Source: Escherichia phage ET-SD-TH. Taken from it: DNA of 33,119 nt. A program made the position numbers and the translations under genes. The notes below the pieces were generated by a model. It saw only the letters and a list, made by a program, of their open reading frames with translations. It did no database searches and was not told the origin of the DNA. The stretch lies in sequence record OR992646. One strand, 5' to 3'. Positions 7,558 through 32,683 of the stretch are shown one piece after another (position 1 is the stretch's first letter; each line of letters starts with the position of its first letter).

Positions 7558-7574
7558 TATTCGGTTTCCTATTG

Positions 7575-7588
7575 ACTGTGCACACAGT
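7575..7588. promoter_or_regulatory. inverted repeat ACTGTG-CA-CACAGT in the sheath 5' leader; candidate late-promoter operator
   Basis: Read directly at 7575-7588, 18-31 nt upstream of the sheath ATG; further CACTG copies at 7598-7602 and 7616-7620 (minus-strand orientation). Confidence 0.3.
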
Positions 7589-7649
7589 GAAAATTCGCAG
7601 TGTGATGGTCGCAGGAACAGTGCGTGGCTTCTTCTTGGGGTTTGTCCGT

Positions 7650-7673
7650 AAAAAAAGCCCGCGTGATGCGGGC
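7650..7673 (-). terminator. intrinsic terminator upstream of the sheath gene
   Basis: Minus-strand RNA GCCCGC-AUCA-(C)GCGGGC followed by UUUUUUU (plus-strand A run 7650-7656, stem 7657-7673). Confidence 0.6.
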
Positions 7674-10600
7674 AAAGGCGACAAATCAGTAACNNNNNNN
7701 NNNNNNNNNNNNNNNNNNNNNNNNNNNNNNNNNNNNNNNNNNNNNNNNNNNNNNNNNNNNNNNNNNNNNNNNNNNNNNNNNNNNNNNNNNNNNNNNNNNN
7801 NNNNNNNNNNNNNNNNNNNNNNNNNNNNNNNNNNNNNNNNNNNNNNNNNNNNNNNNNNNNNNNNNNNNNNNNNNNNNNNNNNNNNNNNNNNNNNNNNNNN
7901 NNNNNNNNNNNNNNNNNNNNNNNNNNNNNNNNNNNNNNNNNNNNNNNNNNNNNNNNNNNNNNNNNNNNNNNNNNNNNNNNNNNNNNNNNNNNNNNNNNNN
8001 NNNNNNNNNNNNNNNNNNNNNNNNNNNNNNNNNNNNNNNNNNNNNNNNNNNNNNNNNNNNNNNNNNNNNNNNNNNNNNNNNNNNNNNNNNNNNNNNNNNN
8101 NNNNNNNNNNNNNNNNNNNNNNNNNNNNNNNNNNNNNNNNNNNNNNNNNNNNNNNNNNNNNNNNNNNNNNNNNNNNNNNNNNNNNNNNNNNNNNNNNNNN
8201 NNNNNNNNNNNNNNNNNNNNNNNNNNNNNNNNNNNNNNNNNNNNNNNNNNNNNNNNNNNNNNNNNNNNNNNNNNNNNNNNNNNNNNNNNNNNNNNNNNNN
8301 NNNNNNNNNNNNNNNNNNNNNNNNNNNNNNNNNNNNNNNNNNNNNNNNNNNNNNNNNNNNNNNNNNNNNNNNNNNNNNNNNNNNNNNNNNNNNNNNNNNN
8401 NNNNNNNNNNNNNNNNNNNNNNNNNNNNNNNNNNNNNNNNNNNNNNNNNNNNNNNNNNNNNNNNNNNNNNNNNNNNNNNNNNNNNNNNNNNNNNNNNNNN
8501 NNNNNNNNNNNNNNNNNNNNNNNNNNNNNNNNNNNNNNNNNNNNNNNNNNNNNNNNNNNNNNNNNNNNNNNNNNNNNNNNNNNNNNNNNNNNNNNNNNNN
8601 NNNNNNNNNNNNNNNNNNNNNNNNNNNNNNNNNNNNNNNNNNNNNNNNNNNNNNNNNNNNNNNNNNNNNNNNNNNNNNNNNNNNNNNNNNNNNNNNNNNN
8701 NNNNNNNNNNNNNNNNNNNNNNNNNNNNNNNNNNNNNNNNNNNNNNNNNNNNNNNNNNNNNNNNNNNNNNNNNNNNNNNNNNNNNNNNNNNNNNNNNNNN
8801 NNNNNNNNNNNNNNNNNNNNNNNNNNNNNNNNNNNNNNNNNNNNNNNNNNNNNNNNNNNNNNNNNNNNNNNNNNNNNNNNNNNNNNNNNNNNNNNNNNNN
8901 NNNNNNNNNNNNNNNNNNNNNNNNNNNNNNNNNNNNNNNNNNNNNNNNNNNNNNNNNNNNNNNNNNNNNNNNNNNNNNNNNNNNNNNNNNNNNNNNNNNN
9001 NNNNNNNNNNNNNNNNNNNNNNNNNNNNNNNNNNNNNNNNNNNNNNNNNNNNNNNNNNNNNNNNNNNNNNNNNNNNNNNNNNNNNNNNNNNNNNNNNNNN
9101 NNNNNNNNNNNNNNNNNNNNNNNNNNNNNNNNNNNNNNNNNNNNNNNNNNNNNNNNNNNNNNNNNNNNNNNNNNNNNNNNNNNNNNNNNNNNNNNNNNNN
9201 NNNNNNNNNNNNNNNNNNNNNNNNNNNNNNNNNNNNNNNNNNNNNNNNNNNNNNNNNNNNNNNNNNNNNNNNNNNNNNNNNNNNNNNNNNNNNNNNNNNN
9301 NNNNNNNNNNNNNNNNNNNNNNNNNNNNNNNNNNNNNNNNNNNNNNNNNNNNNNNNNNNNNNNNNNNNNNNNNNNNNNNNNNNNNNNNNNNNNNNNNNNN
9401 NNNNNNNNNNNNNNNNNNNNNNNNNNNNNNNNNNNNNNNNNNNNNNNNNNNNNNNNNNNNNNNNNNNNNNNNNNNNNNNNNNNNNNNNNNNNNNNNNNNN
9501 NNNNNNNNNNNNNNNNNNNNNNNNNNNNNNNNNNNNNNNNNNNNNNNNNNNNNNNNNNNNNNNNNNNNNNNNNNNNNNNNNNNNNNNNNNNNNNNNNNNN
9601 NNNNNNNNNNNNNNNNNNNNNNNNNNNNNNNNNNNNNNNNNNNNNNNNNNNNNNNNNNNNNNNNNNNNNNNNNNNNNNNNNNNNNNNNNNNNNNNNNNNN
9701 NNNNNNNNNNNNNNNNNNNNNNNNNNNNNNNNNNNNNNNNNNNNNNNNNNNNNNNNNNNNNNNNNNNNNNNNNNNNNNNNNNNNNNNNNNNNNNNNNNNN
9801 NNNNNNNNNNNNNNNNNNNNNNNNNNNNNNNNNNNNNNNNNNNNNNNNNNNNNNNNNNNNNNNNNNNNNNNNNNNNNNNNNNNNNNNNNNNNNNNNNNNN
9901 NNNNNNNNNNNNNNNNNNNNNNNNNNNNNNNNNNNNNNNNNNNNNNNNNNNNNNNNNNNNNNNNNNNNNNNNNNNNNNNNNNNNNNNNNNNNNNNNNNNN
10001 NNNNNNNNNNNNNNNNNNNNNNNNNNNNNNNNNNNNNNNNNNNNNNNNNNNNNNNNNNNNNNNNNNNNNNNNNNNNNNNNNNNNNNNNNNNNNNNNNNNN
10101 NNNNNNNNNNNNNNNNNNNNNNNNNNNNNNNNNNNNNNNNNNNNNNNNNNNNNNNNNNNNNNNNNNNNNNNNNNNNNNNNNNNNNNNNNNNNNNNNNNNN
10201 NNNNNNNNNNNNNNNNNNNNNNNNNNNNNNNNNNNNNNNNNNNNNNNNNNNNNNNNNNNNNNNNNNNNNNNNNNNNNNNNNNNNNNNNNNNNNNNNNNNN
10301 NNNNNNNNNNNNNNNNNNNNNNNNNNNNNNNNNNNNNNNNNNNNNNNNNNNNNNNNNNNNNNNNNNNNNNNNNNNNNNNNNNNNNNNNNNNNNNNNNNNN
10401 NNNNNNNNNNNNNNNNNNNNNNNNNNNNNNNNNNNNNNNNNNNNNNNNNNNNNNNNNNNNNNNNNNNNNNNNNNNNNNNNNNNNNNNNNNNNNNNNNNNN
10501 NNNNNNNNNNNNNNNNNNNNNNNNNNNNNNNNNNNNNNNNNNNNNNNNNNNNNNNNNNNNNNNNNNNNNNNNNNNNNNNNNNNNNNNNNNNNNNNNNNNN

Positions 10601-12750
10601 NNNNNNNNNNNNNNNNNNNNNNNNNNNNNNNNNNNNNNNNNNNNNNNNNNNNNNNNNNNNNNNNNNNNNNNNNNNNNNNNNNNNNNNNNNNNNNNNNNNN
10701 NNNNNNNNNNNNNNNNNNNNNNNNNNNNNNNNNNNNNNNNNNNNNNNNNNNNNNNNNNNNNNNNNNNNNNNNNNNNNNNNNNNNNNNNNNNNNNNNNNNN
10801 NNNNNNNNNNNNNNNNNNNNNNNNNNNNNNNNNNNNNNNNNNNNNNNNNNNNNNNNNNNNNNNNNNNNNNNNNNNNNNNNNNNNNNNNNNNNNNNNNNNN
10901 NNNNNNNNNNNNNNNNNNNNNNNNNNNNNNNNNNNNNNNNNNNNNNNNNNNNNNNNNNNNNNNNNNNNNNNNNNNNNNNNNNNNNNNNNNNNNNNNNNNN
11001 NNNNNNNNNNNNNNNNNNNNNNNNNNNNNNNNNNNNNNNNNNNNNNNNNNNNNNNNNNNNNNNNNNNNNNNNNNNNNNNNNNNNNNNNNNNNNNNNNNNN
11101 NNNNNNNNNNNNNNNNNNNNNNNNNNNNNNNNNNNNNNNNNNNNNNNNNNNNNNNNNNNNNNNNNNNNNNNNNNNNNNNNNNNNNNNNNNNNNNNNNNNN
11201 NNNNNNNNNNNNNNNNNNNNNNNNNNNNNNNNNNNNNNNNNNNNNNNNNNNNNNNNNNNNNNNNNNNNNNNNNNNNNNNNNNNNNNNNNNNNNNNNNNNN
11301 NNNNNNNNNNNNNNNNNNNNNNNNNNNNNNNNNNNNNNNNNNNNNNNNNNNNNNNNNNNNNNNNNNNNNNNNNNNNNNNNNNNNNNNNNNNNNNNNNNNN
11401 NNNNNNNNNNNNNNNNNNNNNNNNNNNNNNNNNNNNNNNNNNNNNNNNNNNNNNNNNNNNNNNNNNNNNNNNNNNNNNNNNNNNNNNNNNNNNNNNNNNN
11501 NNNNNNNNNNNNNNNNNNNNNNNNNNNNNNNNNNNNNNNNNNNNNNNNNNNNNNNNNNNNNNNNNNNNNNNNNNNNNNNNNNNNNNNNNNNNNNNNNNNN
11601 NNNNNNNNNNNNNNNNNNNNNNNNNNNNNNNNNNNNNNNNNNNNNNNNNNNNNNNNNNNNNNNNNNNNNNNNNNNNNNNNNNNNNNNNNNNNNNNNNNNN
11701 NNNNNNNNNNNNNNNNNNNNNNNNNNNNNNNNNNNNNNNNNNNNNNNNNNNNNNNNNNNNNNNNNNNNNNNNNNNNNNNNNNNNNNNNNNNNNNNNNNNN
11801 NNNNNNNNNNNNNNNNNNNNNNNNNNNNNNNNNNNNNNNNNNNNNNNNNNNNNNNNNNNNNNNNNNNNNNNNNNNNNNNNNNNNNNNNNNNNNNNNNNNN
11901 NNNNNNNNNNNNNNNNNNNNNNNNNNNNNNNNNNNNNNNNNNNNNNNNNNNNNNNNNNNNNNNNNNNNNNNNNNNNNNNNNNNNNNNNNNNNNNNNNNNN
12001 NNNNNNNNNNNNNNNNNNNNNNNNNNNNNNNNNNNNNNNNNNNNNNNNNNNNNNNNNNNNNNNNNNNNNNNNNNNNNNNNNNNNNNNNNNNNNNNNNNNN
12101 NNNNNNNNNNNNNNNNNNNNNNNNNNNNNNNNNNNNNNNNNNNNNNNNNNNNNNNNNNNNNNNNNNNNNNNNNNNNNNNNNNNNNNNNNNNNNNNNNNNN
12201 NNNNNNNNNNNNNNNNNNNNNNNNNNNNNNNNNNNNNNNNNNNNNNNNNNNNNNNNNNNNNNNNNNNNNNNNNNNNNNNNNNNNNNNNNNNNNNNNNNNN
12301 NNNNNNNNNNNNNNNNNNNNNNNNNNNNNNNNNNNNNNNNNNNNNNNNNNNNNNNNNNNNNNNNNNNNNNNNNNNNNNNNNNNNNNNNNNNNNNNNNNNN
12401 NNNNNNNNNNNNNNNNNNNNNNNNNNNNNNNNNNNNNNNNNNNNNNNNNNNNNNNNNNNNNNNNNNNNNNNNNNNNNNNNNNNNNNNNNNNNNNNNNNNN
12501 NNNNNNNNNNNNNNNNNNNNNNNNNNNNNNNNNNNNNNNNNNNNNNNNNNNNNNNNNNNNNNNNNNNNNNNNNNNNNNNNNNNNNNNNNNNNNNNNNNNN
12601 NNNNNNNNNNNNNNNNNNNNNNNNNNNNNNNNNNNNNNNNNNNNNNNNNNNNNNNNNNNNNNNNNNNNNNNNNNNNNNNNNNNNNNNNNNNNNNNNNNNN
12701 NNNNNNNNNNNNNNNNNNNNNNNNNNNNNNNNNNNNNNNNNNNNNNNNNN

Positions 12751-12947
12751 TCTGCACGCCTGGCTGATGCAAAGCGCGATACAGGCCAGACATCGTGACA
12801 TCATAGCCAATGCGGCGCTGGCCTTCGGCATAAGCCGCCACGGCGTCAAACGCGGCCTGGCGCACCACTTCTGAATCAGGGCCAGGCAGCAGGGTTAATT
12901 CTGCGCTGATGGCGTAGGTGATAATCTGCGCGGAACGAACTTCAACG
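12751..12947 (-). CDS. baseplate J-like protein fragment (both ends masked)
   Basis: Only 197 nt visible; minus-frame translation VEVRSAQIITYAISAELTLLPGPDSEVVRQAAFDAVAAYAEGQRRIGYDVTMSGLYRALHQPGVQ resembles baseplate J (gpJ) family sequence; position upstream of the sheath fits P2 order. Confidence 0.35.
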
Positions 12948-15900
12948 NNNNNNNNNNNNNNNNNNNNNNNNNNNNNNNNNNNNNNNNNNNNNNNNNNNNN
13001 NNNNNNNNNNNNNNNNNNNNNNNNNNNNNNNNNNNNNNNNNNNNNNNNNNNNNNNNNNNNNNNNNNNNNNNNNNNNNNNNNNNNNNNNNNNNNNNNNNNN
13101 NNNNNNNNNNNNNNNNNNNNNNNNNNNNNNNNNNNNNNNNNNNNNNNNNNNNNNNNNNNNNNNNNNNNNNNNNNNNNNNNNNNNNNNNNNNNNNNNNNNN
13201 NNNNNNNNNNNNNNNNNNNNNNNNNNNNNNNNNNNNNNNNNNNNNNNNNNNNNNNNNNNNNNNNNNNNNNNNNNNNNNNNNNNNNNNNNNNNNNNNNNNN
13301 NNNNNNNNNNNNNNNNNNNNNNNNNNNNNNNNNNNNNNNNNNNNNNNNNNNNNNNNNNNNNNNNNNNNNNNNNNNNNNNNNNNNNNNNNNNNNNNNNNNN
13401 NNNNNNNNNNNNNNNNNNNNNNNNNNNNNNNNNNNNNNNNNNNNNNNNNNNNNNNNNNNNNNNNNNNNNNNNNNNNNNNNNNNNNNNNNNNNNNNNNNNN
13501 NNNNNNNNNNNNNNNNNNNNNNNNNNNNNNNNNNNNNNNNNNNNNNNNNNNNNNNNNNNNNNNNNNNNNNNNNNNNNNNNNNNNNNNNNNNNNNNNNNNN
13601 NNNNNNNNNNNNNNNNNNNNNNNNNNNNNNNNNNNNNNNNNNNNNNNNNNNNNNNNNNNNNNNNNNNNNNNNNNNNNNNNNNNNNNNNNNNNNNNNNNNN
13701 NNNNNNNNNNNNNNNNNNNNNNNNNNNNNNNNNNNNNNNNNNNNNNNNNNNNNNNNNNNNNNNNNNNNNNNNNNNNNNNNNNNNNNNNNNNNNNNNNNNN
13801 NNNNNNNNNNNNNNNNNNNNNNNNNNNNNNNNNNNNNNNNNNNNNNNNNNNNNNNNNNNNNNNNNNNNNNNNNNNNNNNNNNNNNNNNNNNNNNNNNNNN
13901 NNNNNNNNNNNNNNNNNNNNNNNNNNNNNNNNNNNNNNNNNNNNNNNNNNNNNNNNNNNNNNNNNNNNNNNNNNNNNNNNNNNNNNNNNNNNNNNNNNNN
14001 NNNNNNNNNNNNNNNNNNNNNNNNNNNNNNNNNNNNNNNNNNNNNNNNNNNNNNNNNNNNNNNNNNNNNNNNNNNNNNNNNNNNNNNNNNNNNNNNNNNN
14101 NNNNNNNNNNNNNNNNNNNNNNNNNNNNNNNNNNNNNNNNNNNNNNNNNNNNNNNNNNNNNNNNNNNNNNNNNNNNNNNNNNNNNNNNNNNNNNNNNNNN
14201 NNNNNNNNNNNNNNNNNNNNNNNNNNNNNNNNNNNNNNNNNNNNNNNNNNNNNNNNNNNNNNNNNNNNNNNNNNNNNNNNNNNNNNNNNNNNNNNNNNNN
14301 NNNNNNNNNNNNNNNNNNNNNNNNNNNNNNNNNNNNNNNNNNNNNNNNNNNNNNNNNNNNNNNNNNNNNNNNNNNNNNNNNNNNNNNNNNNNNNNNNNNN
14401 NNNNNNNNNNNNNNNNNNNNNNNNNNNNNNNNNNNNNNNNNNNNNNNNNNNNNNNNNNNNNNNNNNNNNNNNNNNNNNNNNNNNNNNNNNNNNNNNNNNN
14501 NNNNNNNNNNNNNNNNNNNNNNNNNNNNNNNNNNNNNNNNNNNNNNNNNNNNNNNNNNNNNNNNNNNNNNNNNNNNNNNNNNNNNNNNNNNNNNNNNNNN
14601 NNNNNNNNNNNNNNNNNNNNNNNNNNNNNNNNNNNNNNNNNNNNNNNNNNNNNNNNNNNNNNNNNNNNNNNNNNNNNNNNNNNNNNNNNNNNNNNNNNNN
14701 NNNNNNNNNNNNNNNNNNNNNNNNNNNNNNNNNNNNNNNNNNNNNNNNNNNNNNNNNNNNNNNNNNNNNNNNNNNNNNNNNNNNNNNNNNNNNNNNNNNN
14801 NNNNNNNNNNNNNNNNNNNNNNNNNNNNNNNNNNNNNNNNNNNNNNNNNNNNNNNNNNNNNNNNNNNNNNNNNNNNNNNNNNNNNNNNNNNNNNNNNNNN
14901 NNNNNNNNNNNNNNNNNNNNNNNNNNNNNNNNNNNNNNNNNNNNNNNNNNNNNNNNNNNNNNNNNNNNNNNNNNNNNNNNNNNNNNNNNNNNNNNNNNNN
15001 NNNNNNNNNNNNNNNNNNNNNNNNNNNNNNNNNNNNNNNNNNNNNNNNNNNNNNNNNNNNNNNNNNNNNNNNNNNNNNNNNNNNNNNNNNNNNNNNNNNN
15101 NNNNNNNNNNNNNNNNNNNNNNNNNNNNNNNNNNNNNNNNNNNNNNNNNNNNNNNNNNNNNNNNNNNNNNNNNNNNNNNNNNNNNNNNNNNNNNNNNNNN
15201 NNNNNNNNNNNNNNNNNNNNNNNNNNNNNNNNNNNNNNNNNNNNNNNNNNNNNNNNNNNNNNNNNNNNNNNNNNNNNNNNNNNNNNNNNNNNNNNNNNNN
15301 NNNNNNNNNNNNNNNNNNNNNNNNNNNNNNNNNNNNNNNNNNNNNNNNNNNNNNNNNNNNNNNNNNNNNNNNNNNNNNNNNNNNNNNNNNNNNNNNNNNN
15401 NNNNNNNNNNNNNNNNNNNNNNNNNNNNNNNNNNNNNNNNNNNNNNNNNNNNNNNNNNNNNNNNNNNNNNNNNNNNNNNNNNNNNNNNNNNNNNNNNNNN
15501 NNNNNNNNNNNNNNNNNNNNNNNNNNNNNNNNNNNNNNNNNNNNNNNNNNNNNNNNNNNNNNNNNNNNNNNNNNNNNNNNNNNNNNNNNNNNNNNNNNNN
15601 NNNNNNNNNNNNNNNNNNNNNNNNNNNNNNNNNNNNNNNNNNNNNNNNNNNNNNNNNNNNNNNNNNNNNNNNNNNNNNNNNNNNNNNNNNNNNNNNNNNN
15701 NNNNNNNNNNNNNNNNNNNNNNNNNNNNNNNNNNNNNNNNNNNNNNNNNNNNNNNNNNNNNNNNNNNNNNNNNNNNNNNNNNNNNNNNNNNNNNNNNNNN
15801 NNNNNNNNNNNNNNNNNNNNNNNNNNNNNNNNNNNNNNNNNNNNNNNNNNNNNNNNNNNNNNNNNNNNNNNNNNNNNNNNNNNNNNNNNNNNNNNNNNNN

Positions 15901-18793
15901 NNNNNNNNNNNNNNNNNNNNNNNNNNNNNNNNNNNNNNNNNNNNNNNNNNNNNNNNNNNNNNNNNNNNNNNNNNNNNNNNNNNNNNNNNNNNNNNNNNNN
16001 NNNNNNNNNNNNNNNNNNNNNNNNNNNNNNNNNNNNNNNNNNNNNNNNNNNNNNNNNNNNNNNNNNNNNNNNNNNNNNNNNNNNNNNNNNNNNNNNNNNN
16101 NNNNNNNNNNNNNNNNNNNNNNNNNNNNNNNNNNNNNNNNNNNNNNNNNNNNNNNNNNNNNNNNNNNNNNNNNNNNNNNNNNNNNNNNNNNNNNNNNNNN
16201 NNNNNNNNNNNNNNNNNNNNNNNNNNNNNNNNNNNNNNNNNNNNNNNNNNNNNNNNNNNNNNNNNNNNNNNNNNNNNNNNNNNNNNNNNNNNNNNNNNNN
16301 NNNNNNNNNNNNNNNNNNNNNNNNNNNNNNNNNNNNNNNNNNNNNNNNNNNNNNNNNNNNNNNNNNNNNNNNNNNNNNNNNNNNNNNNNNNNNNNNNNNN
16401 NNNNNNNNNNNNNNNNNNNNNNNNNNNNNNNNNNNNNNNNNNNNNNNNNNNNNNNNNNNNNNNNNNNNNNNNNNNNNNNNNNNNNNNNNNNNNNNNNNNN
16501 NNNNNNNNNNNNNNNNNNNNNNNNNNNNNNNNNNNNNNNNNNNNNNNNNNNNNNNNNNNNNNNNNNNNNNNNNNNNNNNNNNNNNNNNNNNNNNNNNNNN
16601 NNNNNNNNNNNNNNNNNNNNNNNNNNNNNNNNNNNNNNNNNNNNNNNNNNNNNNNNNNNNNNNNNNNNNNNNNNNNNNNNNNNNNNNNNNNNNNNNNNNN
16701 NNNNNNNNNNNNNNNNNNNNNNNNNNNNNNNNNNNNNNNNNNNNNNNNNNNNNNNNNNNNNNNNNNNNNNNNNNNNNNNNNNNNNNNNNNNNNNNNNNNN
16801 NNNNNNNNNNNNNNNNNNNNNNNNNNNNNNNNNNNNNNNNNNNNNNNNNNNNNNNNNNNNNNNNNNNNNNNNNNNNNNNNNNNNNNNNNNNNNNNNNNNN
16901 NNNNNNNNNNNNNNNNNNNNNNNNNNNNNNNNNNNNNNNNNNNNNNNNNNNNNNNNNNNNNNNNNNNNNNNNNNNNNNNNNNNNNNNNNNNNNNNNNNNN
17001 NNNNNNNNNNNNNNNNNNNNNNNNNNNNNNNNNNNNNNNNNNNNNNNNNNNNNNNNNNNNNNNNNNNNNNNNNNNNNNNNNNNNNNNNNNNNNNNNNNNN
17101 NNNNNNNNNNNNNNNNNNNNNNNNNNNNNNNNNNNNNNNNNNNNNNNNNNNNNNNNNNNNNNNNNNNNNNNNNNNNNNNNNNNNNNNNNNNNNNNNNNNN
17201 NNNNNNNNNNNNNNNNNNNNNNNNNNNNNNNNNNNNNNNNNNNNNNNNNNNNNNNNNNNNNNNNNNNNNNNNNNNNNNNNNNNNNNNNNNNNNNNNNNNN
17301 NNNNNNNNNNNNNNNNNNNNNNNNNNNNNNNNNNNNNNNNNNNNNNNNNNNNNNNNNNNNNNNNNNNNNNNNNNNNNNNNNNNNNNNNNNNNNNNNNNNN
17401 NNNNNNNNNNNNNNNNNNNNNNNNNNNNNNNNNNNNNNNNNNNNNNNNNNNNNNNNNNNNNNNNNNNNNNNNNNNNNNNNNNNNNNNNNNNNNNNNNNNN
17501 NNNNNNNNNNNNNNNNNNNNNNNNNNNNNNNNNNNNNNNNNNNNNNNNNNNNNNNNNNNNNNNNNNNNNNNNNNNNNNNNNNNNNNNNNNNNNNNNNNNN
17601 NNNNNNNNNNNNNNNNNNNNNNNNNNNNNNNNNNNNNNNNNNNNNNNNNNNNNNNNNNNNNNNNNNNNNNNNNNNNNNNNNNNNNNNNNNNNNNNNNNNN
17701 NNNNNNNNNNNNNNNNNNNNNNNNNNNNNNNNNNNNNNNNNNNNNNNNNNNNNNNNNNNNNNNNNNNNNNNNNNNNNNNNNNNNNNNNNNNNNNNNNNNN
17801 NNNNNNNNNNNNNNNNNNNNNNNNNNNNNNNNNNNNNNNNNNNNNNNNNNNNNNNNNNNNNNNNNNNNNNNNNNNNNNNNNNNNNNNNNNNNNNNNNNNN
17901 NNNNNNNNNNNNNNNNNNNNNNNNNNNNNNNNNNNNNNNNNNNNNNNNNNNNNNNNNNNNNNNNNNNNNNNNNNNNNNNNNNNNNNNNNNNNNNNNNNNN
18001 NNNNNNNNNNNNNNNNNNNNNNNNNNNNNNNNNNNNNNNNNNNNNNNNNNNNNNNNNNNNNNNNNNNNNNNNNNNNNNNNNNNNNNNNNNNNNNNNNNNN
18101 NNNNNNNNNNNNNNNNNNNNNNNNNNNNNNNNNNNNNNNNNNNNNNNNNNNNNNNNNNNNNNNNNNNNNNNNNNNNNNNNNNNNNNNNNNNNNNNNNNNN
18201 NNNNNNNNNNNNNNNNNNNNNNNNNNNNNNNNNNNNNNNNNNNNNNNNNNNNNNNNNNNNNNNNNNNNNNNNNNNNNNNNNNNNNNNNNNNNNNNNNNNN
18301 NNNNNNNNNNNNNNNNNNNNNNNNNNNNNNNNNNNNNNNNNNNNNNNNNNNNNNNNNNNNNNNNNNNNNNNNNNNNNNNNNNNNNNNNNNNNNNNNNNNN
18401 NNNNNNNNNNNNNNNNNNNNNNNNNNNNNNNNNNNNNNNNNNNNNNNNNNNNNNNNNNNNNNNNNNNNNNNNNNNNNNNNNNNNNNNNNNNNNNNNNNNN
18501 NNNNNNNNNNNNNNNNNNNNNNNNNNNNNNNNNNNNNNNNNNNNNNNNNNNNNNNNNNNNNNNNNNNNNNNNNNNNNNNNNNNNNNNNNNNNNNNNNNNN
18601 NNNNNNNNNNNNNNNNNNNNNNNNNNNNNNNNNNNNNNNNNNNNNNNNNNNNNNNNNNNNNNNNNNNNNNNNNNNNNNNNNNNNNNNNNNNNNNNNNNNN
18701 NNNNNNNNNNNNNNNNNNNNNNNNNNNNNNNNNNNNNNNNNNNNNNNNNNNNNNNNNNNNNNNNNNNNNNNNNNNNNNNNNNNNNNNNNNNNN

Positions 18794-20326
18794 TTGCTGC
18801 CCCATTAACAGTTGTTTATCCATGCCCATGCTTTGCATGACCAGTTTTTCCGCCATTTCGCGGCTGATACCGTGCTGCGTGTACGCCTCAATCATGCGCG
18901 CCACGTCGCTGGCGGTTTCCTTCCAAACGGTGTCAGGGTCGCTGCCACCTTCACGGATGATGCGGCCAGGCGATTGCAGCATGTTGTTTTTGGACCGTTC
19001 AGCGGCTGCCACGTCAGATGACGGGTCAATCCAGGCCCAACGGCGTGGCTGCCATTCAATATCGCTGTAGCGGTCGATGCGTTCCGGTTTCAGGCTTCGG
19101 CCTTTAACGGTGATGCGACCAGCAAGCAGGGCACGCGGCAACCATGCTTCAAAAACGGGTTGATGCAGGTTTTCAATCAACCATTCCTGCAATTCTTTCC
19201 AGTTTTCGCGGCTGTCTAGCGTTCCCTGGCGGATTGAACTGAAATTGACGCCTTCCAGGTCGCTGGCAAGGTCATTGTACGGAACGCCCATACCGGACGC
19301 CATGCCGCGCAGCATTTGTTTGGTGAACACGGCAAATTCGCCGTTGGGGTACTGTGGCGACCAGTCTTTGACGCGTGCGCCCTGTGGCAGCACCTGGAAT
19401 TCACCCGGTTCACTGTCAATGATCAGTTCGTCATCATCTTCAAACTCAGGACCAGCGGAATTTTCATCCCATTCGATGAATCCCATTTTGTTGGCGCCGG
19501 CGCGTGCGTTGACCAGCGCGGCTTCTTCCATGCCGCCCAGGTGGCGCATACGAAACAGGCTGGTGGCCATCCACGGCAGACCGCGTTTCTGTCCAACCAT
19601 GTCATCAAGGAAGCCGTGAAGGATTTCATCAGCGGGGATGCGCACGAAATCACGCCCGGACCAACGGTAGTTATCATCGGATTCATCAACGGTGCTGAAA
19701 TAGTACGCAATAGGCCGCCCGTAGCGGTTAAACTCGATGCCCTGGCGGATGAAATTTCCGTTATTCAGACGATCTTCAACCATGTCCACAGGGCAGCGTT
19801 GCGGGTCCAACAGTTGCAGCGCAAAGCCCCACGGACCGGCATCGGCACCGAACACCAGGCGCACGAAGAATTCACCATCTTTAGCCGCGCTGTTGACGCA
19901 GGCAGCCTGGATGGCTCTCCAGGACAGCTTCCCGGTCACGTCGCAGTTTGACTTGTGCCCCCACTTATCGAAGGCAGTTTCAATGGCTTCGTTGGCAAGG
20001 GTGTCCAGTTTCCCGGTGTTGTCAGTGCTTTTGGCCTGCAACAGAACGCCTTTTGGCCCAACAATATTGTTGCGGCACAGGCGCAGGAATTTTTTGGCGT
20101 AATCGTTATTGGCGGCCTGTTCGCGGGAACGGGCCACCAGGATGCGTTGATTTTTGTTGATTACCTCGTCAGCCGTCAGCGGCTGTGTGCCCCACGCGGT
20201 GCCCAACCGGTCAACACTGGCACCGGTAAACATGCGGGAAGCCAGGCGGTTAAGCGGTAAACGCCGCGTGCGCGGCTGTTGTGCATGTTCGGCAGGCTTA
20301 TTTCTGGTAAATGGCCACAGTTTCAT
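18794..20326 (-). CDS. phage portal protein, lambda gpB family (3' end masked)
   Basis: ATG at 20326-20324; 511 visible codons with ...FTKQMLRGMASGMGVPYNDLASDLEGVNFSSIRQG... similar to lambda gpB; directly follows the terminase large subunit and gpW-like gene. Confidence 0.85.
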
Positions 20327-20865
20327 TAGCGAAGGCTCACCCGTACTTTACGCCCGAACGGGTTTTTGCCGCACTGCGCCTGCTTTTCGCGTGCTACTTC
20401 CAGGCGGTACAAGTCGCGCAGTTTCAACAAATCCGCAATCGGGGTGCGATATAACTCGCGGTTATTGATGCGGTAGCGTTCCTGGTCCATCGTTGCGCGT
20501 CGTTCAATGACCGCTTCAATGGCTTCCAGTGTGCGTTGCGCGTGAGTTTTCCCGTTAAATCCATCACTGGCGCTGGCCAGGTCTGGCAGGATGGTAATCT
20601 GGCCGTTTCCGGCCTCCATAACGTCATCGCCTTTGGTCGCACGCAGCGAATACCAGTAATCACCTGCTGGCCACGTTTGAGTGACGCCAGCGGCAGCGCG
20701 GATGACGTGATCGTTACCATCAGCGACGGCGTTGATGTTAATTGACTGCGGGCCGCGCAGCAGTAGCTGAACGGCCCATTCAGTTGCAGGATAGCCGGGA
20801 AGCGTCAGACGCGTCTCAAATGTCAATCCAGCAGTAATTTTCTGCGGTACTTGGCAGTTTTTCAC
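20326..20865 (-). CDS. gpW-like head-tail joining protein with about 100-aa N-terminal extension of unknown function
   Basis: 179-aa ORF, GTG start at 20865-20863 with GGTGAT Shine-Dalgarno 7 nt upstream; stop overlaps the portal ATG (TAATG). C-terminal about 70 aa (LEAIEAVIERRATMDQERYRINNRELYRTPIADLLKLRDLYRLEV) resembles lambda gpW; the N-terminal part matches nothing I recognise. Confidence 0.45.
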   Translation of the reverse strand: MKNCQVPQKITAGLTFETRLTLPGYPATEWAVQLLLRGPQSININAVADGNDHVIRAAAGVTQTWPAGDYWYSLRATKGDDVMEAGNGQITILPDLASASDGFNGKTHAQRTLEAIEAVIERRATMDQERYRINNRELYRTPIADLLKLRDLYRLEVAREKQAQCGKNPFGRKVRVSLR

Positions 20866-20871
20866 TATTTA

Positions 20872-22920
20872 TCACCAGCGGCTAACCCATCCACCGCCAC
20901 GGCGTTTTGCTGCCCTGGCGGAACGTTTAATGGTCTTAGTCTCTTTGACTTGCTGTTTTTCTTCTTCTTGGGGTTTGTCATTGACCGCTGATGGTGGCTC
21001 CACCGGCTTCATGACAGGTTTTACGTTCGGCAGTCGCTTGCGTCGTTCCGGTGGCGCGTTGTCGTTCGCTACGCCAAACTTTTCAGCCAGACGGCGGAAT
21101 GACGGCTGCATGATTTTAAGCGCGGCCAGCGCATAGTTGCGGCAGTCCAGTGCTTCGTTACGCGCCCGGTCGGGTTTCTTCCATTCGCGGATTGGCTGGC
21201 CCTTCACGTAACGCATGGTTAGCTTTTCAGCGGTGATTTGCTTGAACCATTCTTCATCACGGTCAGCAGGGAAGTGGCAATAACCCGGCCCAGGTGCCGT
21301 CTTGTTTAAACGCCTTGCGGTTATCAGCTTGGCTTCATCGGTTCCCACCAGGAACAAATCCACTTTGCGGGCATCCTTCCCGGATTGCTTGCGCTTCGGC
21401 TTCTCCACGACAGGGCGGCCCCATCCGCCAACGCCTTTGATGGCAAACAGGCGGCGGCCTGTGCGCCCCCTGGCGTATTCGTAGGATGCCTGCGTGTAAC
21501 CGCTGGTGCCCCCTGTATCGAGGCAGGCGGCCATGATCGGCATAATGGCCCCGGTTTCGTGCTGGTAGGTTTCCGCCAGAAGGTCATCCAGTGCATCCCA
21601 GGGGTCAGGCGTCAGTGGGTCACCCCACAGGACGTGGTAACCCAATGACCAGGATTCTTCACCCACACCCCAGGCGACCACCTCACATTCCAGGCGGTCA
21701 ACCTGCATGTCTATGCCTGCGGTGATATACAGCCCACCAGCAGGAACCGGCGCTGCGTATTCCTCGCGGCGGGCCATCAGTGAATCCGGGTCAACCTTGT
21801 CGCCTTCTTCTTCCCAGGTGCGCGCCAGGCTGACGTTGGTGAAGGTTTGCAGGTCGTCGGTTTTCAGCTTGTCCAGGTAGTCACGCACGATGGCCGGAAC
21901 TTTGCGGAACGTGCTGTAAAGTTCGTTCAGATGGTAGCTGGCGTGCCCTTCAAACGGCCTGGATGCCTTCCATCCTGCGCCCTTTCCTTCGGCCTGGCGG
22001 ATAGCCGCTATCCGTTCGCCGTCATTCCACTGCGCGCCGCACGATGGGCAATACAGGTGCGCGGTTTCCGGCTTCTGTTCTTCGATGGCCGCCAGCGTTT
22101 CCGCGTCAGTTTCCCGTTGGCCATCCCATTTGACGTTTTCCCATTCAAGCGTAACGTGATCGTCACAGTGCGGGCAGCAAACAAAGAAGTGCCGCTGGTC
22201 GCCCATTTCATACGCTTTTTCGATGTACGATTCCCCTTTAAGGGTAGGTGTGCTAATTTCCAGCAAAAAACGCTGGTCACCGAAGGTGGCAGAGCGCTGC
22301 CACAGCAGGCCAACAGGGTGGCCTTCGCTGGTTCGTTCATATCCGTCTACCTCGTCACAGACAATCAGCGGCGCTGAACGCCCGCGCATGGTCTTTGGCG
22401 AACCGGACCAGGCGAACATCAGGAACCCGCCAGGGTATGATTTCATTTTCTGGTTGTTCACCCCGTCGCGGCCACGCGGCTTGGCAATGGCGTTGTTTAC
22501 CGGCGCGCATTCTTCCGCCAGCGGGTTGAATTTCGTTTCCAGCCAGGTGCGCAAGTCATCCTGGCTTGGCTGCATCATCATCTGGCTGCGCGGTTCCGCT
22601 GCTACGCTGTACGCCTGCACGCACAGTGCCAGCATGGTTTTGCCCACCTGCGCGCCCCACATCAGGGTCACGCGGTAACAATCAGGGTCAACCAGCATGT
22701 CCATTGGTTCGCGCTGGTATGGCGCGTTATCCAGGCGCAGCGGCCCTGGCACGGCGTTGCCAGACGGAATGCGGATGTTTGCCTGCGCCCACTCTGACGG
22801 CTTCATGTCTGGCGGCGGCAACAATTGTTGTTGTGCGCGCCTGATGGCCTGGTCGATGCCTTCAATGTTGGCAAACGGGTTATTCTTCGCTGTCACCGTC
22901 GCCCCCTTCGTCATAGCCAT
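20872..22920 (-). CDS. terminase large subunit (lambda gpA-like)
   Basis: 682-aa ORF; Walker A-like GAQVGKT; overall similarity to lambda gpA (...FFVCCPHCDDHVTLEWENVKWDGQ...); paired with an Nu1-like small subunit upstream. Confidence 0.9.
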   Translation of the reverse strand: MAMTKGATVTAKNNPFANIEGIDQAIRRAQQQLLPPPDMKPSEWAQANIRIPSGNAVPGPLRLDNAPYQREPMDMLVDPDCYRVTLMWGAQVGKTMLALCVQAYSVAAEPRSQMMMQPSQDDLRTWLETKFNPLAEECAPVNNAIAKPRGRDGVNNQKMKSYPGGFLMFAWSGSPKTMRGRSAPLIVCDEVDGYERTSEGHPVGLLWQRSATFGDQRFLLEISTPTLKGESYIEKAYEMGDQRHFFVCCPHCDDHVTLEWENVKWDGQRETDAETLAAIEEQKPETAHLYCPSCGAQWNDGERIAAIRQAEGKGAGWKASRPFEGHASYHLNELYSTFRKVPAIVRDYLDKLKTDDLQTFTNVSLARTWEEEGDKVDPDSLMARREEYAAPVPAGGLYITAGIDMQVDRLECEVVAWGVGEESWSLGYHVLWGDPLTPDPWDALDDLLAETYQHETGAIMPIMAACLDTGGTSGYTQASYEYARGRTGRRLFAIKGVGGWGRPVVEKPKRKQSGKDARKVDLFLVGTDEAKLITARRLNKTAPGPGYCHFPADRDEEWFKQITAEKLTMRYVKGQPIREWKKPDRARNEALDCRNYALAALKIMQPSFRRLAEKFGVANDNAPPERRKRLPNVKPVMKPVEPPSAVNDKPQEEEKQQVKETKTIKRSARAAKRRGGGWVSRW

Positions 22921-23404
22921 CCAGCAGGGCAGTGGTCACCAGTGATTTCAGCACTTCGTCAATTTCGCCCATCATCACCGATTTGAACCGGCGTTCATCG
23001 GTTTCACCGATAAGCATTGAAACGGTGCGCTGTGGCAGGTTGCGCATACCGGCGCGCACTTCCGCGAAGGCGCGGGCAACGGCGCGTTCAACCTGGTCCA
23101 GCGGTGCCACTTCGCCTTTGGCTTTGGCCAGTTCCAGTTCTGCTTTTTCGGTTTCGGCTGCCAGCTTGCGGCGCTTCAATTCCGTTTCATCGGCCAGCAT
23201 GTCACCGGTGGCCGCTTTCACATCGCGTTCACGCAACCATGCCGCCACCTGCGCGGTGTCGTACTCCCATTCTTTACCGCGCCCGCCAAGTGTTACGTAG
23301 GGCGCGCCGTCTTTTCGCCACTGATCAACTGTTGGCGGTGCTACCCCGAAAACTTCCGCCAGGCCGCTGCGGTTAACTGTTCGGCCCTTTATTACTTTTG
23401 CCAA
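22880..23404 (-). CDS. terminase small subunit (lambda Nu1-like)
   Basis: TVNRSGLAEVFGVAPPTVDQWRKDGAPYVTLGGRGKEWEYDTAQVAAWLRERD aligns with the lambda Nu1 N-terminal winged-HTH (VNKKQLADIFGASIRTIQNWQEQGMPVLRGGGKG...); probable TTG start at 23404 with AAGG upstream; overlaps the large-subunit start by 41 nt. Confidence 0.8.
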   Translation of the reverse strand: MAKVIKGRTVNRSGLAEVFGVAPPTVDQWRKDGAPYVTLGGRGKEWEYDTAQVAAWLRERDVKAATGDMLADETELKRRKLAAETEKAELELAKAKGEVAPLDQVERAVARAFAEVRAGMRNLPQRTVSMLIGETDERRFKSVMMGEIDEVLKSLVTTALLDGYDEGGDGDSEE

Positions 23405-24064
23405 TTAATGTCGCCTTATCTAATGCTAAAATCAATTTTGATTATCCACGCACAACGCGAATNNNNNNNNNNNNNNNNNNNNNNNNNNNNNNNNNNNNNN
23501 NNNNNNNNNNNNNNNNNNNNNNNNNNNNNNNNNNNNNNNNNNNNNNNNNNNNNNNNNNNNNNNNNNNNNNNNNNNNNNNNNNNNNNNNNNNNNNNNNNNN
23601 NNNNNNNNNNNNNNNNNNNNNNNNNNNNNNNNNNNNNNNNNNNNNNNNNNNNNNNNNNNNNNNNNNNNNNNNNNNNNNNNNNNNNNNNNNNNNNNNNNNN
23701 NNNNNNNNNNNNNNNNNNNNNNNNNNNNNNNNNNNNNNNNNNNNNNNNNNNNNNNNNNNNNNNNNNNNNNNNNNNNNNNNNNNNNNNNNNNNNNNNNNNN
23801 NNNNNNNNNNNNNNNNNNNNNNNNNNNNNNNNNNNNNNNNNNNNNNNNNNNNNNNNNNNNNNNNNNNNNNNNNNNNNNNNNNNNNNNNNNNNNNNNNNNN
23901 NNNNNNNNNNNNNNNNNNNNNNNNNNNNNNNNNNNNNNNNNNNNNNNNNNNNNNNNNNNNNNNNNNNNNNNNNNNNNNNNNNNNNNNNNNNNNNNNNNNN
24001 NNNNNNNNNNNNNNNNNNNNNNNNNNNNNNNNNNNNNNNNNNNNNNNNNNNNNNNNNNNNNNNN

Positions 24065-25154: not shown

Positions 25155-25589
25155 TTATTGCCCCGTAGTCATTAGTAGTCGGTGCTGATGGTTGTCATTT
25201 GCAGGTGATGTGTCTTTGTGGGGTTTGTCAGTGCAATGGCGCTTTACTGTGCGTTCTGATATGTCCAGCAGTTCCGCAATGGCTTTTGCGTCCATTCCTT
25301 CGCTGTGCATCCGCTTAATGCTGCGGTGAATGAAATGGCGGTAAATGTATTCACAATTAGCCGGGTGAAGCATTTCACCACCGAAGTGCTGCACCATCTT
25401 GCTGGCATCGTGCCACCCCAGGATTTTCACCAGTGGGTCATTGGGTCTAATCCGCTTTGGTACATACAGGATGACTTTGTGGTACTGCTGCGATGGCACC
25501 CACAGTTTTGGCAGTTGACCTATAAGAAAAAGCGCACGTTCACGGCCAATAACGTCAGCTATTTCCTGCACAGTGCGCGGTAATTCCAT
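25155..25589 (-). CDS. Mor-family late transcriptional activator
   Basis: ATG 25589-25587 preceded by GGGGGG; C-terminal GGEMLHPANCEYIYRHFIHRSIKRMHSEGMDAKAIAELLDISERTVKRHC matches the spacing of the Mu Mor GG...HTH region; positioned immediately upstream of the lysis/packaging genes. Confidence 0.55.
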   Translation of the reverse strand: MELPRTVQEIADVIGRERALFLIGQLPKLWVPSQQYHKVILYVPKRIRPNDPLVKILGWHDASKMVQHFGGEMLHPANCEYIYRHFIHRSIKRMHSEGMDAKAIAELLDISERTVKRHCTDKPHKDTSPANDNHQHRLLMTTGQ

Positions 25590-25660
25590 GTAACCCCCCA
25601 ATAATTATAAATAAAAGTCAATATGGGGATTGTAGCACACAGAATATACGAAAGTAACAA

Positions 25661-26273: not shown

Positions 26274-27017
26274 NNNNNNNNNNNNNNNNNNNNNNNNNNN
26301 NNNNNNNNNNNNNNNNNNNNNNNNNNNNNNNNNNNNNNNNNNNNNNNNNNNNNNNNNNNNNNNNNNNNNNNNNNNNNNNNNNNNNNNNNNNNNNNNNNNN
26401 NNNNNNNNNNNNNNNNNNNNNNNNNNNNNNNNNNNNNNNNNNNNNNNNNNNNNNNNNNNNNNNNNNNNNNNNNNNNNNNNNNNNNNNNNNNNNNNNNNNN
26501 NNNNNNNNNNNNNNNNNNNNNNNNNNNNNNNNNNNNNNNNNNNNNNNNNNNNNNNNNNNNNNNNNNNNNNNNNNNNNNNNNNNNNNNNNNNNNNNNNNNN
26601 NNNNNNNNNNNNNNNNNNNNNNNNNNNNNNNNNNNNNNNNNNNNNNNNNNNNNNNNNNNNNNNNNNNNNNNNNNNNNNNNNNNNNNNNNNNNNNNNNNNN
26701 NNNNNNNNNNNNNNNNNNNNNNNNNNNNNNNNNNNNNNNNNNNNNNNNNNNNNNNNNNNNNNNNNNNNNNNNNNNNNNNNNNNNNNNNNNNNNNNNNNNN
26801 NNNNNNNNNNNNNNNNNNNNNNNNNNNNNNNNNNNNNNNNNNNNNNNNNNNNNNNNNNNNNNNNNNNNNNNNNNNNNNNNNNNNNNNNNNNNNNNNNNNN
26901 NNNNNNNNNNNNNNNNNNNNNNNNNNNNNNNNNNNNNNNNNNNNNNNNNNNNNNNNNNNNNNNNNNNNNNNNNNNNNNNNNNNNNNNNNNNNNNNNNNNN
27001 NNNNNNNNNNNNNNNNN

Positions 27018-27232: not shown

Positions 27233-27949
27233 NNNNNNNNNNNNNNNNNNNNNNNNNNNNNNNNNNNNNNNNNNNNNNNNNNNNNNNNNNNNNNNNNNNN
27301 NNNNNNNNNNNNNNNNNNNNNNNNNNNNNNNNNNNNNNNNNNNNNNNNNNNNNNNNNNNNNNNNNNNNNNNNNNNNNNNNNNNNNNNNNNNNNNNNNNNN
27401 NNNNNNNNNNNNNNNNNNNNNNNNNNNNNNNNNNNNNNNNNNNNNNNNNNNNNNNNNNNNNNNNNNNNNNNNNNNNNNNNNNNNNNNNNNNNNNNNNNNN
27501 NNNNNNNNNNNNNNNNNNNNNNNNNNNNNNNNNNNNNNNNNNNNNNNNNNNNNNNNNNNNNNNNNNNNNNNNNNNNNNNNNNNNNNNNNNNNNNNNNNNN
27601 NNNNNNNNNNNNNNNNNNNNNNNNNNNNNNNNNNNNNNNNNNNNNNNNNNNNNNNNNNNNNNNNNNNNNNNNNNNNNNNNNNNNNNNNNNNNNNNNNNNN
27701 NNNNNNNNNNNNNNNNNNNNNNNNNNNNNNNNNNNNNNNNNNNNNNNNNNNNNNNNNNNNNNNNNNNNNNNNNNNNNNNNNNNNNNNNNNNNNNNNNNNN
27801 NNNNNNNNNNNNNNNNNNNNNNNNNNNNNNNNNNNNNNNNNNNNNNNNNNNNNNNNNNNNNNNNNNNNNNNNNNNNNNNNNNNNNNNNNNNNNNNNNNNN
27901 NNNNNNNNNNNNNNNNNNNNNNNNNNNNNNNNNNNNNNNNNNNNNNNNN

Positions 27950-27981: not shown

Positions 27982-30072
27982 TCAAAATGGCCGGTCATCA
28001 TCGTCATGGAATCGCCGGTGGTCAGGGTTTGGCACCTTCGGCGGAATACTGAACAGGCGATTGCTGCCAGACTTCCTGGCAGGCTTGCCAGTGAGTTTTC
28101 TCAGTACCCCTGCACAATGTGTCGTCTGTGCCTTGTTCGGCTTGTCGTAGCCAATTTCTTGCAGCACCTGCGTTGCTGTACGGTCGGTATAGGCTGCCGG
28201 TCTGTCGCAACCCCACTCGTAACGCATCAGTATCATTTCCTCTACCGGGTCAATTGCTTCGTGTTCCTTGTTCACCTGTTCCAGCATGGCTTCTTCTTCT
28301 GCGTTCATCCACCAGCGCTCGCCTTCGCGGTACAACTGCGCCACTTCTGCCCAAACCTGCTGCATATCAATATCGTGTTCGTAGTTGATGCGTGTCACTG
28401 GAATAGTCCACCAGCGAACGTTCCCTGTATCATCCGCAAGGAAGTGTTTCGGGTTCACTGACGCAAAAAACACGGTTCTGCGCTGGTAGGTCGATTCAAG
28501 CCGGTCATAAGGTCTGCGGATTTCGTCACGGTCCTGGCTGATGAATGATTTCAGGCGTGCGATGTCCGATTTACGGAAAGTTGCATCCAGTTCACCAAGC
28601 TCCACCATCCAGCGTCCTATTGCGCTGCTGACGCTATCTTTGTTTGCCGGGTCGATTGTTGCCCCTACCTTAATCAGTTCACGCAGTGTAGGCGGCACCA
28701 GCGAGCGAAACCATGCTGTTTTCCCCAGCGACTGTTCGCCCTGTAGCACCAGAACGCCTTTTGAGTAGAACCCGGTTGGCTGCATCGCGGCAGCAACGGC
28801 GGAAATCAACCAGCGGCGAACCATCATCAACACCAGGCTTCGATCAAAACCTTCCGCCGTTTCCAGTGTATCGCACAGGTCATAAATGCGGCTCACACCA
28901 TCCCACGGTTTTGCGGTGATAAATTCAGATGCCGGATTGTAACGGTTGCTCATGGCAATCAGTTTTACATACTCAGCACAGGAACCAGACGGCATACCGT
29001 TGCGGGCGCACAGGCTGACAATTTCAGTCAATGCGCTGTTCGCTGATGCGTCGTTGCCGTAATCCTTGCCGGGGATCGTAACTACCACATCTTTGCTGAT
29101 TTCGTTGTAACGCGATTTTATGCCGTACTGGGTAAGCAGCCATTCCAGGTTTTCCCACGTGTTAAGCGGTTTTTGCTGGTGGCTCATGTGCGGGAACATG
29201 AACGGGTTTACGCTGGCATCTAGCGGCAGAAAGTTATCATTCACCGGTTCCGGAATCACCGCGTTAATCTGGTTGCATACAGCTTTTAAACCTTCCAGTA
29301 CGTGCAGGTCATTAAAGTCGGTCGGCTTATCGCTAAGGCGCATAAATTTAGGAACCGCCAGCAGGCCACCAGTGGTGATTGATGCCTGGCGAGCGTAGTG
29401 AACGCCATCATTTTGCTTGCCATCTTCGTGCCACTGGTCGTTATCGGCTGCCACAACAATTGTTGCGCGTCCGAACTGCTGACGCATTAGCTTGGCTACG
29501 GTCGGAACGTTGCCAGCATCGAACGCGACCACCACGCAGTAACCGGTAGCCTGGTGGATTGACGCGCCGGTGGAATACCCTTCACAGATAACAATAACCG
29601 GGTTTGCGCCAGTTGGTTTATTGCCAATGACGTGGAAGCACCCACGTTTCTGGCCCCCAGGAAGGTAATCACGGTCACGCCCTAGCTGTGGGTTTTCGTT
29701 CTGGAATATGGCTTGCAGGCTGGTGATCTGCCCGTCAATGTTTCTGATTGGCACCAGCAGCGCGCCATCCTGGTTACGAAAACGACCAATGCGCAGCCCG
29801 AATGATTTAACCAGTTTGCGTTTCAGATATGGGTGTTCATCGCCTTCCAGTTCGGTGGCTGATTCCCATATGGTGTTCGCCTGCGCAGCAGCCTGCGCCA
29901 TACGTTCTGCGCGCAGTTGTTGTTCTTTGCGCTCTTCTTCTTCGCGGCGTTTTTTACGCGCCTGAATCTCTTCGGCAGAAATCGGTGTGCGTTCGTTATC
30001 GTTCAGCGAAAAGCCAAATAACTGCGCCTCACCAATCAGGGTGCCAATCCCAATGCCTCCGTGACGCTTCAC
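27982..30072 (-). CDS. P4-type DNA primase/helicase (Toprim plus D5/P4-like NTPase), as the ORF reinitiating at GTG 30072
   Basis: 696-aa ORF; Toprim-like VIVICEGYSTGASIHQATGYCVVVAFDAGNV and DND motif; Walker A GEQSLGKT in the C-terminal half. The upstream in-frame 120 nt encode the start of a PriCT-2-like domain but are cut off by TAA at 30165-30163. Confidence 0.8.
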   Translation of the reverse strand: MKRHGGIGIGTLIGEAQLFGFSLNDNERTPISAEEIQARKKRREEEERKEQQLRAERMAQAAAQANTIWESATELEGDEHPYLKRKLVKSFGLRIGRFRNQDGALLVPIRNIDGQITSLQAIFQNENPQLGRDRDYLPGGQKRGCFHVIGNKPTGANPVIVICEGYSTGASIHQATGYCVVVAFDAGNVPTVAKLMRQQFGRATIVVAADNDQWHEDGKQNDGVHYARQASITTGGLLAVPKFMRLSDKPTDFNDLHVLEGLKAVCNQINAVIPEPVNDNFLPLDASVNPFMFPHMSHQQKPLNTWENLEWLLTQYGIKSRYNEISKDVVVTIPGKDYGNDASANSALTEIVSLCARNGMPSGSCAEYVKLIAMSNRYNPASEFITAKPWDGVSRIYDLCDTLETAEGFDRSLVLMMVRRWLISAVAAAMQPTGFYSKGVLVLQGEQSLGKTAWFRSLVPPTLRELIKVGATIDPANKDSVSSAIGRWMVELGELDATFRKSDIARLKSFISQDRDEIRRPYDRLESTYQRRTVFFASVNPKHFLADDTGNVRWWTIPVTRINYEHDIDMQQVWAEVAQLYREGERWWMNAEEEAMLEQVNKEHEAIDPVEEMILMRYEWGCDRPAAYTDRTATQVLQEIGYDKPNKAQTTHCAGVLRKLTGKPARKSGSNRLFSIPPKVPNPDHRRFHDDDDRPF

Positions 30073-32179: not shown

Positions 32180-32683
32180 TCATTTTCCGAACACCAGTTT
32201 TTCAGCGTCATCCACTGACCGCACAACACCGGCGCGGCCCCCGTTATCATTCACCGCGTTGATGAAGTTGCGTTGCAACGGTGACACGCGGGCACCGTCT
32301 TTGACTTCCAGGCCGGTGAAGATGGCCACTTTCTGGCCCACCATGTCAGGCGTGATTTCCACACTGACCAGGCCGAACAGGTCGGAAAACCCTGGCGGCA
32401 GCCCGGTGTCAAACGGCCTGGCGTTTTTCAGCAGCACGTCACGCGGCCCCATCACAACAGGCATCTGGCGCGGCACCTTCACCACTTCATTGCTTGTGTA
32501 AGCCTTGCCAACGTTGGCGCGAAACAGCAGGCAGCGGCCTGCCAGTGCGTTGCGGATTGCGTTCTGCAACGCGTGTTCTTTGTTAGCCATAGATAACCCC
32601 CACCAGGACGCAGCCAGAACCACCAGCAGCCAGAATAATTCATCATTCAGCATCGCCAGGACGCCACGCATGAACAGTTTCAT
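32180..32683 (-). CDS. VRR-NUC-like nuclease domain protein (start ambiguous: 32683 or 32590)
   Basis: GFSDLF...TGLEVKDGARVSPLQRNFINAVNDNGGRAGVVRSVDDAEKL follows the VRR-NUC pattern (PDL...EVK...Q...G...VV). ATG 32683 is ATGA-coupled to the upstream gene but adds a hydrophobic N-terminus; internal ATG 32590 has a strong GGTGGGGG Shine-Dalgarno. Confidence 0.5.
   Translation of the reverse strand: MKLFMRGVLAMLNDELFWLLVVLAASWWGLSMANKEHALQNAIRNALAGRCLLFRANVGKAYTSNEVVKVPRQMPVVMGPRDVLLKNARPFDTGLPPGFSDLFGLVSVEITPDMVGQKVAIFTGLEVKDGARVSPLQRNFINAVNDNGGRAGVVRSVDDAEKLVFGK

Follow-up and report, generated by a model that had tools for sequence, protein, structure and literature searches.

The open reading frame located at 20326..20865 on the minus strand of Escherichia phage ET-SD-TH (OR992646; the whole stretch of 33,119 nucleotides analysed here is referred to as the window) very probably codes for the head-to-tail adaptor (also termed head completion protein) of an E. 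coli myophage of the Jilinvirus type, in its full-length, two-domain form, with its roles assigned from the adaptor of roseophage R4C. The analysis demonstrated a reading frame with conserved placement beside the portal gene. Both halves of its product were shown to be under purifying selection, and the protein to be homologous to the R4C adaptor in both sequence and predicted fold. The protein was already known, an almost identical allele being annotated in other phages.

The ORF listing gave a product of 179 aa on the minus strand, starting with GTG at 20865-20863 and ending with TAA at 20328-20326, and the completeness of this head-to-tail adaptor ('head-tail joining') ORF was supported by the profile of PHROG 5774, by relatives and by the PDB chain 8GTD_M described below. 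The sequence-only reading had proposed an ORF of this length with a GTG start between the terminase and portal genes, which was confirmed with an identical translation. The gene directly upstream (20872..22920, minus strand) encodes a gpA-type large terminase (GpA_ATPase, 3.1e-75; GpA_nuclease, 7.4e-98), and 6 bases lie between its stop codon and the adaptor GTG. On the other side, the adaptor TAA and the ATG of the portal gene share one base (TAATG). This gene (18794..20326, minus strand), encoding a lambda-family portal (Phage_portal_2, 3.5e-93) as the putative binding partner of the adaptor, was readable for its first approximately 510 codons, the rest being N. The GTG start was retained in all five phage genomes compared, and a GGTGA(T/C) motif ahead of it was likewise kept across the five related phages, including ECO1230-10, Alux-21, HeidiAbel and PT1. 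In the window, this motif is GGTGAT at 20871..20876 (minus strand), located 5 nt ahead of the GTG and overlapping the TGA stop of the terminase gene. The Shine-Dalgarno sequence earlier regarded as good was thus present but only partial. Further upstream, a Nu1-like small terminase gene with a TTG start was found at 22880-23404 (minus strand). The start of the large-terminase gene was ambiguous, as the longest ORF from the ATG at 22920 (682 aa) overlaps the small-terminase gene by 41 nt; the gene is annotated with 2025 nt in the RefSeq entry of ECO1230-10 and with 2043 nt in Alux-21.

The DNA of this region was 95-97% identical to that of Escherichia phages vB_EcoM_ECO1230-10, ep3, ECOO78 and Alux-21, the first two of which are named Escherichia species of the genus Jilinvirus, and 83-85% identical to that of HeidiAbel_Bas97 and Salmonella phage PT1. 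No near-identical copy of the region was detected in the complete E. coli genomes searched, and it is therefore not a common prophage. At the protein level, the adaptor shared 98-99% identity with the proteins annotated as head-tail joining in the Jilinvirus phages ECO1230-10, ep3 and ECOO78. The counterpart in ECO1230-10 is Orf29 (YP_009168911.1), and RefSeq labels the orthologous 540-nt gene 'head-tail joining'. The profile of PHROG 5774 ('head-tail joining') matched with an E-value of 3.2e-73, aligning residues 4-179 with positions 1-175 of its 177 positions, and each half searched alone matched it at approximately 1e-33. [quoted passage not shown] The members of PHROG 5774 include proteins from ECO1230-10, ep3, ECOO78, Alux-21, HeidiAbel, Arya, PPpW-3, Persinger, FoX1-5, VP882 and phiHAP-1; the synteny is the same and nothing of substance differs, the ET-SD-TH protein being one more allele of this annotated family. 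As for Pfam, no model for the family was available; DUF7016 (PF22858) scored 14.3-16.7 bits (E 0.042 to 0.0076), below its gathering threshold of 27 bits.

A search with the family profile against 1.84 billion cluster representatives at 50% identity retrieved 4,501 representatives at E<=1e-3 and 2,934 at E<=1e-10. Among the best 150 matches, 134 were 165-200 aa in length and aligned end to end, and all 91 diverse homologs selected from the family matched PHROG 5774. The family was carried by 51 deposited phage genome records, which included Jilinvirus, Arya, PPpW-3, Persinger, Mica, Mano, Alexa, phiRSP and FoX1-5, as well as VP882, phiHAP-1, R4C, S-CBS1/3 and the RcCronus group. The adaptor gene was located directly upstream of the portal gene at every locus inspected (ECO1230-10, HeidiAbel, PT1, Alux-21, FoX3 and RcCronus). 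This wide spread together with the conserved placement indicated that the two-domain form is the ancestral and standard architecture of a large family extending across siphophages and myophages. The fusion supposed earlier is not specific to this phage: the same architecture is standard in approximately 4,500 clusters at 50% identity, and near-identical relatives already carry the RefSeq label 'head-tail joining'.

The conservation of the two halves was then informative on whether the whole ORF is translated. When compared with the counterparts in HeidiAbel and PT1, the N half showed dS of approximately 1.0-1.1 and dN of approximately 0.19, giving a dN/dS of 0.18, and the corresponding ratio for the C half was 0.13-0.16. 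No frame breaks were found within the first 100 residues in an alignment of 33 homologs (53-81% identity), in which 14 residues of the N domain were invariant (P7, A12, G13, W30, R37, G38, G50, T62, W65, G68, Y70, R75, E84 and D95). Judging from these substitution patterns, both halves are translated and under purifying selection. The earlier view that the N-terminal extension is translated was borne out by the dN/dS ratio, the 14 invariant residues among the 33 homologs and the conserved GTG.

It had been considered that a start at an internal ATG would speak against the extension. Such a start, for example at M83 (20619-20617, minus strand), would yield only a short protein of gpW size, and the sequence ahead of it in the ORF would be untranslated or wrongly called as part of the gene. 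The in-frame ATG at codon 83 and the length of lambda gpW, only 68 aa, are compatible with this idea, but M83 is replaced by V in HeidiAbel, PT1 and most homologs, and it sits within the last beta-strands of the N domain, which was confidently predicted by AlphaFold. In addition, the part upstream of M83 is the very region that showed the dN/dS of 0.18 and the 14 invariant residues, and the equivalent domain of the R4C homolog was modelled in the virion structure (PMC10276861). Codons 96-107, forming the linker between the two domains, were also inspected for in-frame ATG, GTG or TTG, and none was present. The internal start at M83 was thus rejected on the grounds of the unconserved ATG, its position inside a folded domain and the purifying selection upstream of it, and we regard it as highly improbable. 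The chance that the 179-aa ORF is an artefact, in which two neighbouring genes were fused by a frameshift or an assembly error, appears negligible; the unusual length relative to lambda gpW was the sole point in its favour, and nine records of related phages as well as thousands of metagenomic clusters contained the uninterrupted 179-aa ORF too, so that this explanation was likewise rejected.

The structure of the full-length adaptor was predicted by AlphaFold with an overall pLDDT of 80.9. The model consisted of a beta-sandwich spanning residues 9-93 (pLDDT of approximately 90), a linker, a helix at 108-125, a loop, a second helix at 143-165 and a tail, in agreement with the two-part nature suggested earlier. 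The N-terminal Ig-like beta-sandwich, called the 'attachment domain' in R4C terms, comprises residues 1-97 (20575..20865, minus strand), the strands and the fold being assigned from the model and Foldseek. It is followed by a flexible linker of residues 98-107 (20545..20574, minus strand), which had no secondary structure in the model and was variable in the homolog alignment. The tube domain is formed by a first helix of residues 108-125 (20491..20544, minus strand) and a second helix of residues 143-165 (20371..20439, minus strand), which were assigned from the model and aligned to residues 107-130 and 149-166 of the R4C protein, respectively. Between the two helices lies the 'adaptor loop' DQERYRINNRELYRT, residues 126-142 (20440..20490, minus strand). 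This loop was the most conserved stretch of the family, with D127, Q128, R130, Y131, R132, I133, N135, R136, E137, L138 and Y139 invariant in the homolog alignment, and was poorly ordered with low pLDDT in the monomer model. The C-terminal hook GKNPFGRKVRVSLR, residues 166-179 (20329..20370, minus strand), was an extended tail in the model and contains the conserved residues G166, G171 and V176. With regard to the N-terminal Ig-like domain, 23 of the 91 family members also matched phrog_1084 (best E 1.5e-8), a family of 123 positions with unknown function; these profile matches hint that the domain may exist in another protein context.

Comparison with structures in the PDB supported the same assignment. 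A sequence search of the PDB detected one clear relative, chain M of the entry 8GTD, a 'Head-to-tail joining protein' of 178 aa present as 12 chains in the entry. The similarity covered residues 25-171 in phmmer (E 1e-17) and residues 23-162 with the family profile (E 1.2e-21). Foldseek with the adaptor model also returned 8GTD_M first, aligned along the full length (E 1.4e-11, TM 0.65, 29% identity over 185 columns), and the matches following it were Ig-like domains of filamin, antibody V domains and phage baseplate Ig domains. The entry 8GTD shows the adaptor vBDshSR4C_004 of roseophage vB_DshS-R4C in complex with the portal. Residues 1-106 of this adaptor form an Ig-like attachment domain, which a long flexible loop links to a tube domain made up of residues 107-130 and 149-166; the adaptor loop occupies residues 131-148 and the C-terminal hook residues 167-178 (PMC10276861). 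In R4C, the portal is capped on the outside of the capsid by twelve adaptor copies, whose attachment domains touch the major capsid proteins around the portal vertex; the hook joins the portal clip in hybrid beta-sheets and the adaptor loop binds the stopper (PMC10276861). The neck map had a resolution of 4.7 A and the models, begun from predictions, were backbone-only (PMC10276861); the contact details are therefore soft.

The ET-SD-TH protein resembles the R4C adaptor in length (179 and 178 aa) and in having the attachment domain, the linker, the helix-loop-helix tube domain and the hook in the same order, and the boundaries of the R4C parts map onto it almost residue for residue. In both phages, the adaptor gene directly precedes the portal gene. 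Similarity over both domains, the predicted fold and the gene placement upstream of the portal thus all agreed with an adaptor of the R4C type, although the sequence identity was just 29-34%. The two phages also differ in that R4C, a siphophage, has an alphaproteobacterial host, whereas the present phage infects E. coli and has P2-type contractile-tail genes, and owing to this difference in tail type the surroundings of the N domain at the neck could differ. The 'attachment domain' of the adaptor of siphophage Avs-1 was considered as another comparison and set aside, as that protein is a different adaptor of the DT57C/RcGTA type.

Lambda gpW is the first protein added to the portal. The C half of the adaptor had been described as gpW-like, and several features agreed with this description: the location of the gene between those for a gpA-type terminase and a lambda-family portal, the presumed role as the first protein on the portal, and the similar order of helix, loop or hairpin, helix and C-terminal tail. 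Unlike the adaptor, lambda gpW (Pfam PF02831; PHROG 75, 'head-tail adaptor Ad1') consists of 68 aa without an Ig domain. In Pfam searches, neither the whole adaptor nor its C half matched gpW (PF02831) even at E<=10, and none of the 91 diverse family members matched it at E<=0.01, whereas lambda gpW itself, used as the control, scored 5.8e-38. Alignment by hhalign of the adaptor with lambda gpW alone and with an alignment of gpW homologs gave E-values of 0.11, 0.069 and 0.039 with a probability of approximately 1%, the set of homologs being narrow (Neff ~1.9) and the profile accordingly insensitive. These alignments always fell on one short register, NNRELYRTPIADL against DGRRVEFTATSVSDL. No significant link between the adaptor and gpW emerged from profile searches of PDB sequences, and gpW was not matched in fold searches with the adaptor. 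A direct relationship between the C half and lambda gpW was thus not demonstrated by Pfam, hhalign or PDB profile searches.

The C half alone was instead matched by phrog_118 ('head-tail adaptor', a profile of 76 positions) over residues 107-176, nearly the whole profile (E 1.6e-5), and this family was matched by 61 of the 91 diverse family members with a best E-value of 7.4e-12. For lambda gpW itself, the match to phrog_118 reached only E 0.031. The small adaptors of phrog_118 possess the C-terminal module only, without the Ig-like domain. By these profile matches, the C half of the ET-SD-TH protein is a genuine module of the small head-tail adaptors. It corresponds to gpW in position and function and has a similar layout, but is not filed in the gpW family. 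The term gpW-like therefore holds for position, role and the helix-loop-helix-tail layout, and not for homology, which remained below significance.

The window also contains a P2-type contractile-tail gene set at 245-6133 (minus strand), comprising the tail tube FII (5630-6133), the tape measure (2814-5150), gpU (2407-2814) and the gpD hub (1053-2204), all on the minus strand. This is therefore a contractile-tailed phage, in which a lambda-type packaging and head module, represented by the terminase and portal genes, is combined with a P2-type tail. Other genes found on the minus strand were those for a Toprim and VapE-like primase/helicase (27985-30072), a VRR-NUC nuclease (32183-32683) and a small HTH protein (25158-25601), which by its position appears to correspond to the 'late transcriptional activator' annotated in ECO1230-10. 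Six runs of N (755-845, 7694-12750, 12948-18793, 23463-24064, 26274-27017 and 27233-27949), amount to approximately 13 kb altogether; downstream of the first approximately 510 codons of the portal gene, they hide the majority of the genes for head and neck. The '4260-aa' ORF at 7544-20326 and other ORFs running through these stretches are artefacts of masking.

The masked part could be viewed in the relatives. A gene for an approximately 682-aa 'major head protein' follows the portal gene (8543-10591 in the ECO1230-10 locus, L001, and 1-1593 in locus L003), overlapping its end by 23 nt, and the corresponding part of the window is masked. The counterpart in PT1 is annotated as protease C / scaffold Nu3, and the 'major head protein' of the relatives may be a protease-scaffold-capsid fusion. 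A gene for the head-closure protein Hc1 is annotated further down the head module of ECO1230-10, again matching a masked region of the window. The gene for 'endonuclease VII' was located between the two terminase subunits in FoX3 (L006, 609-1202) and after the major head gene in ECO1230-10 (L001, 8189-8491); the differing places in related phages suggest that this nuclease gene of the packaging and head module is mobile or shuffled.

On the basis of the homology to R4C, we infer the stoichiometry, the contacts and the bracing role of the adaptor in neck assembly as follows. When DNA packaging ends and the terminase leaves, twelve copies of the adaptor would bind under the portal. The C-terminal hook (residues 166-179) would insert into the portal clip, and the helices of residues 108-125 and 143-165 would lengthen the channel. 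The adaptor loop (residues 126-142) would then provide the docking site for a hexameric stopper of the Hc1/gpFII type, which in turn would receive the tail. The Ig-like domain (residues 1-97), held by the flexible linker, would fold back on the outer capsid around the portal vertex and brace the junction between portal and capsid.

The bracing role of the Ig-like domain was the part of this scheme for which another function had to be weighed. The domain might not brace the capsid and might instead be an exposed module for decoration or adhesion, with weak binding to glycans of the host surface or the environment, or an anchor for a neck component such as a collar or whiskers in these contractile-tailed phages. 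Its fold resembles those of filamin, antibody V domains and phage baseplate Ig domains, single members of the adaptor family match the E-set, FnIII and PKD families of Pfam, and the homolog in Acinetobacter phage Alexa is annotated as 'capsid decoration protein'. The flexibility of the interdomain linker in the model and a tail type differing from that of R4C are also compatible with such a function. However, R4C provides the only solved homolog, and there the domain was seen at the portal vertex lying against the capsid, a position from which the authors argued that a role in adsorption is unlikely (PMC10276861). The N domain of the present adaptor was also fairly conserved (dN/dS 0.18) and does not resemble a fast-evolving receptor binder. 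We accordingly consider a non-bracing, decorating or anchoring domain very unlikely. A broader conjecture, in which the Ig-like domain of the Jilinvirus type is non-bracing, serving as a neck or collar anchor or contacting host glycans, and in which, as a separate matter, the C module of the phrog_118 type represents a remote evolutionary bridge to gpW, is in our estimation unlikely. The capsid-bracing adaptor remained the preferred reading.

For annotation, these results mean that an R4C-type head-to-tail adaptor carrying an Ig-like attachment domain at its N-terminus is the correct label for the gene, rather than a fusion of gpW with an unknown domain. The importance of the individual gene extends little beyond its correct annotation. 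The adaptor family travels with the head module of gpA-type terminase and lambda-type portal in both siphophages and myophages. As the family occurs with both tail types, the extra, presumably capsid-contacting domain would belong to the head module, independently of the type of tail.
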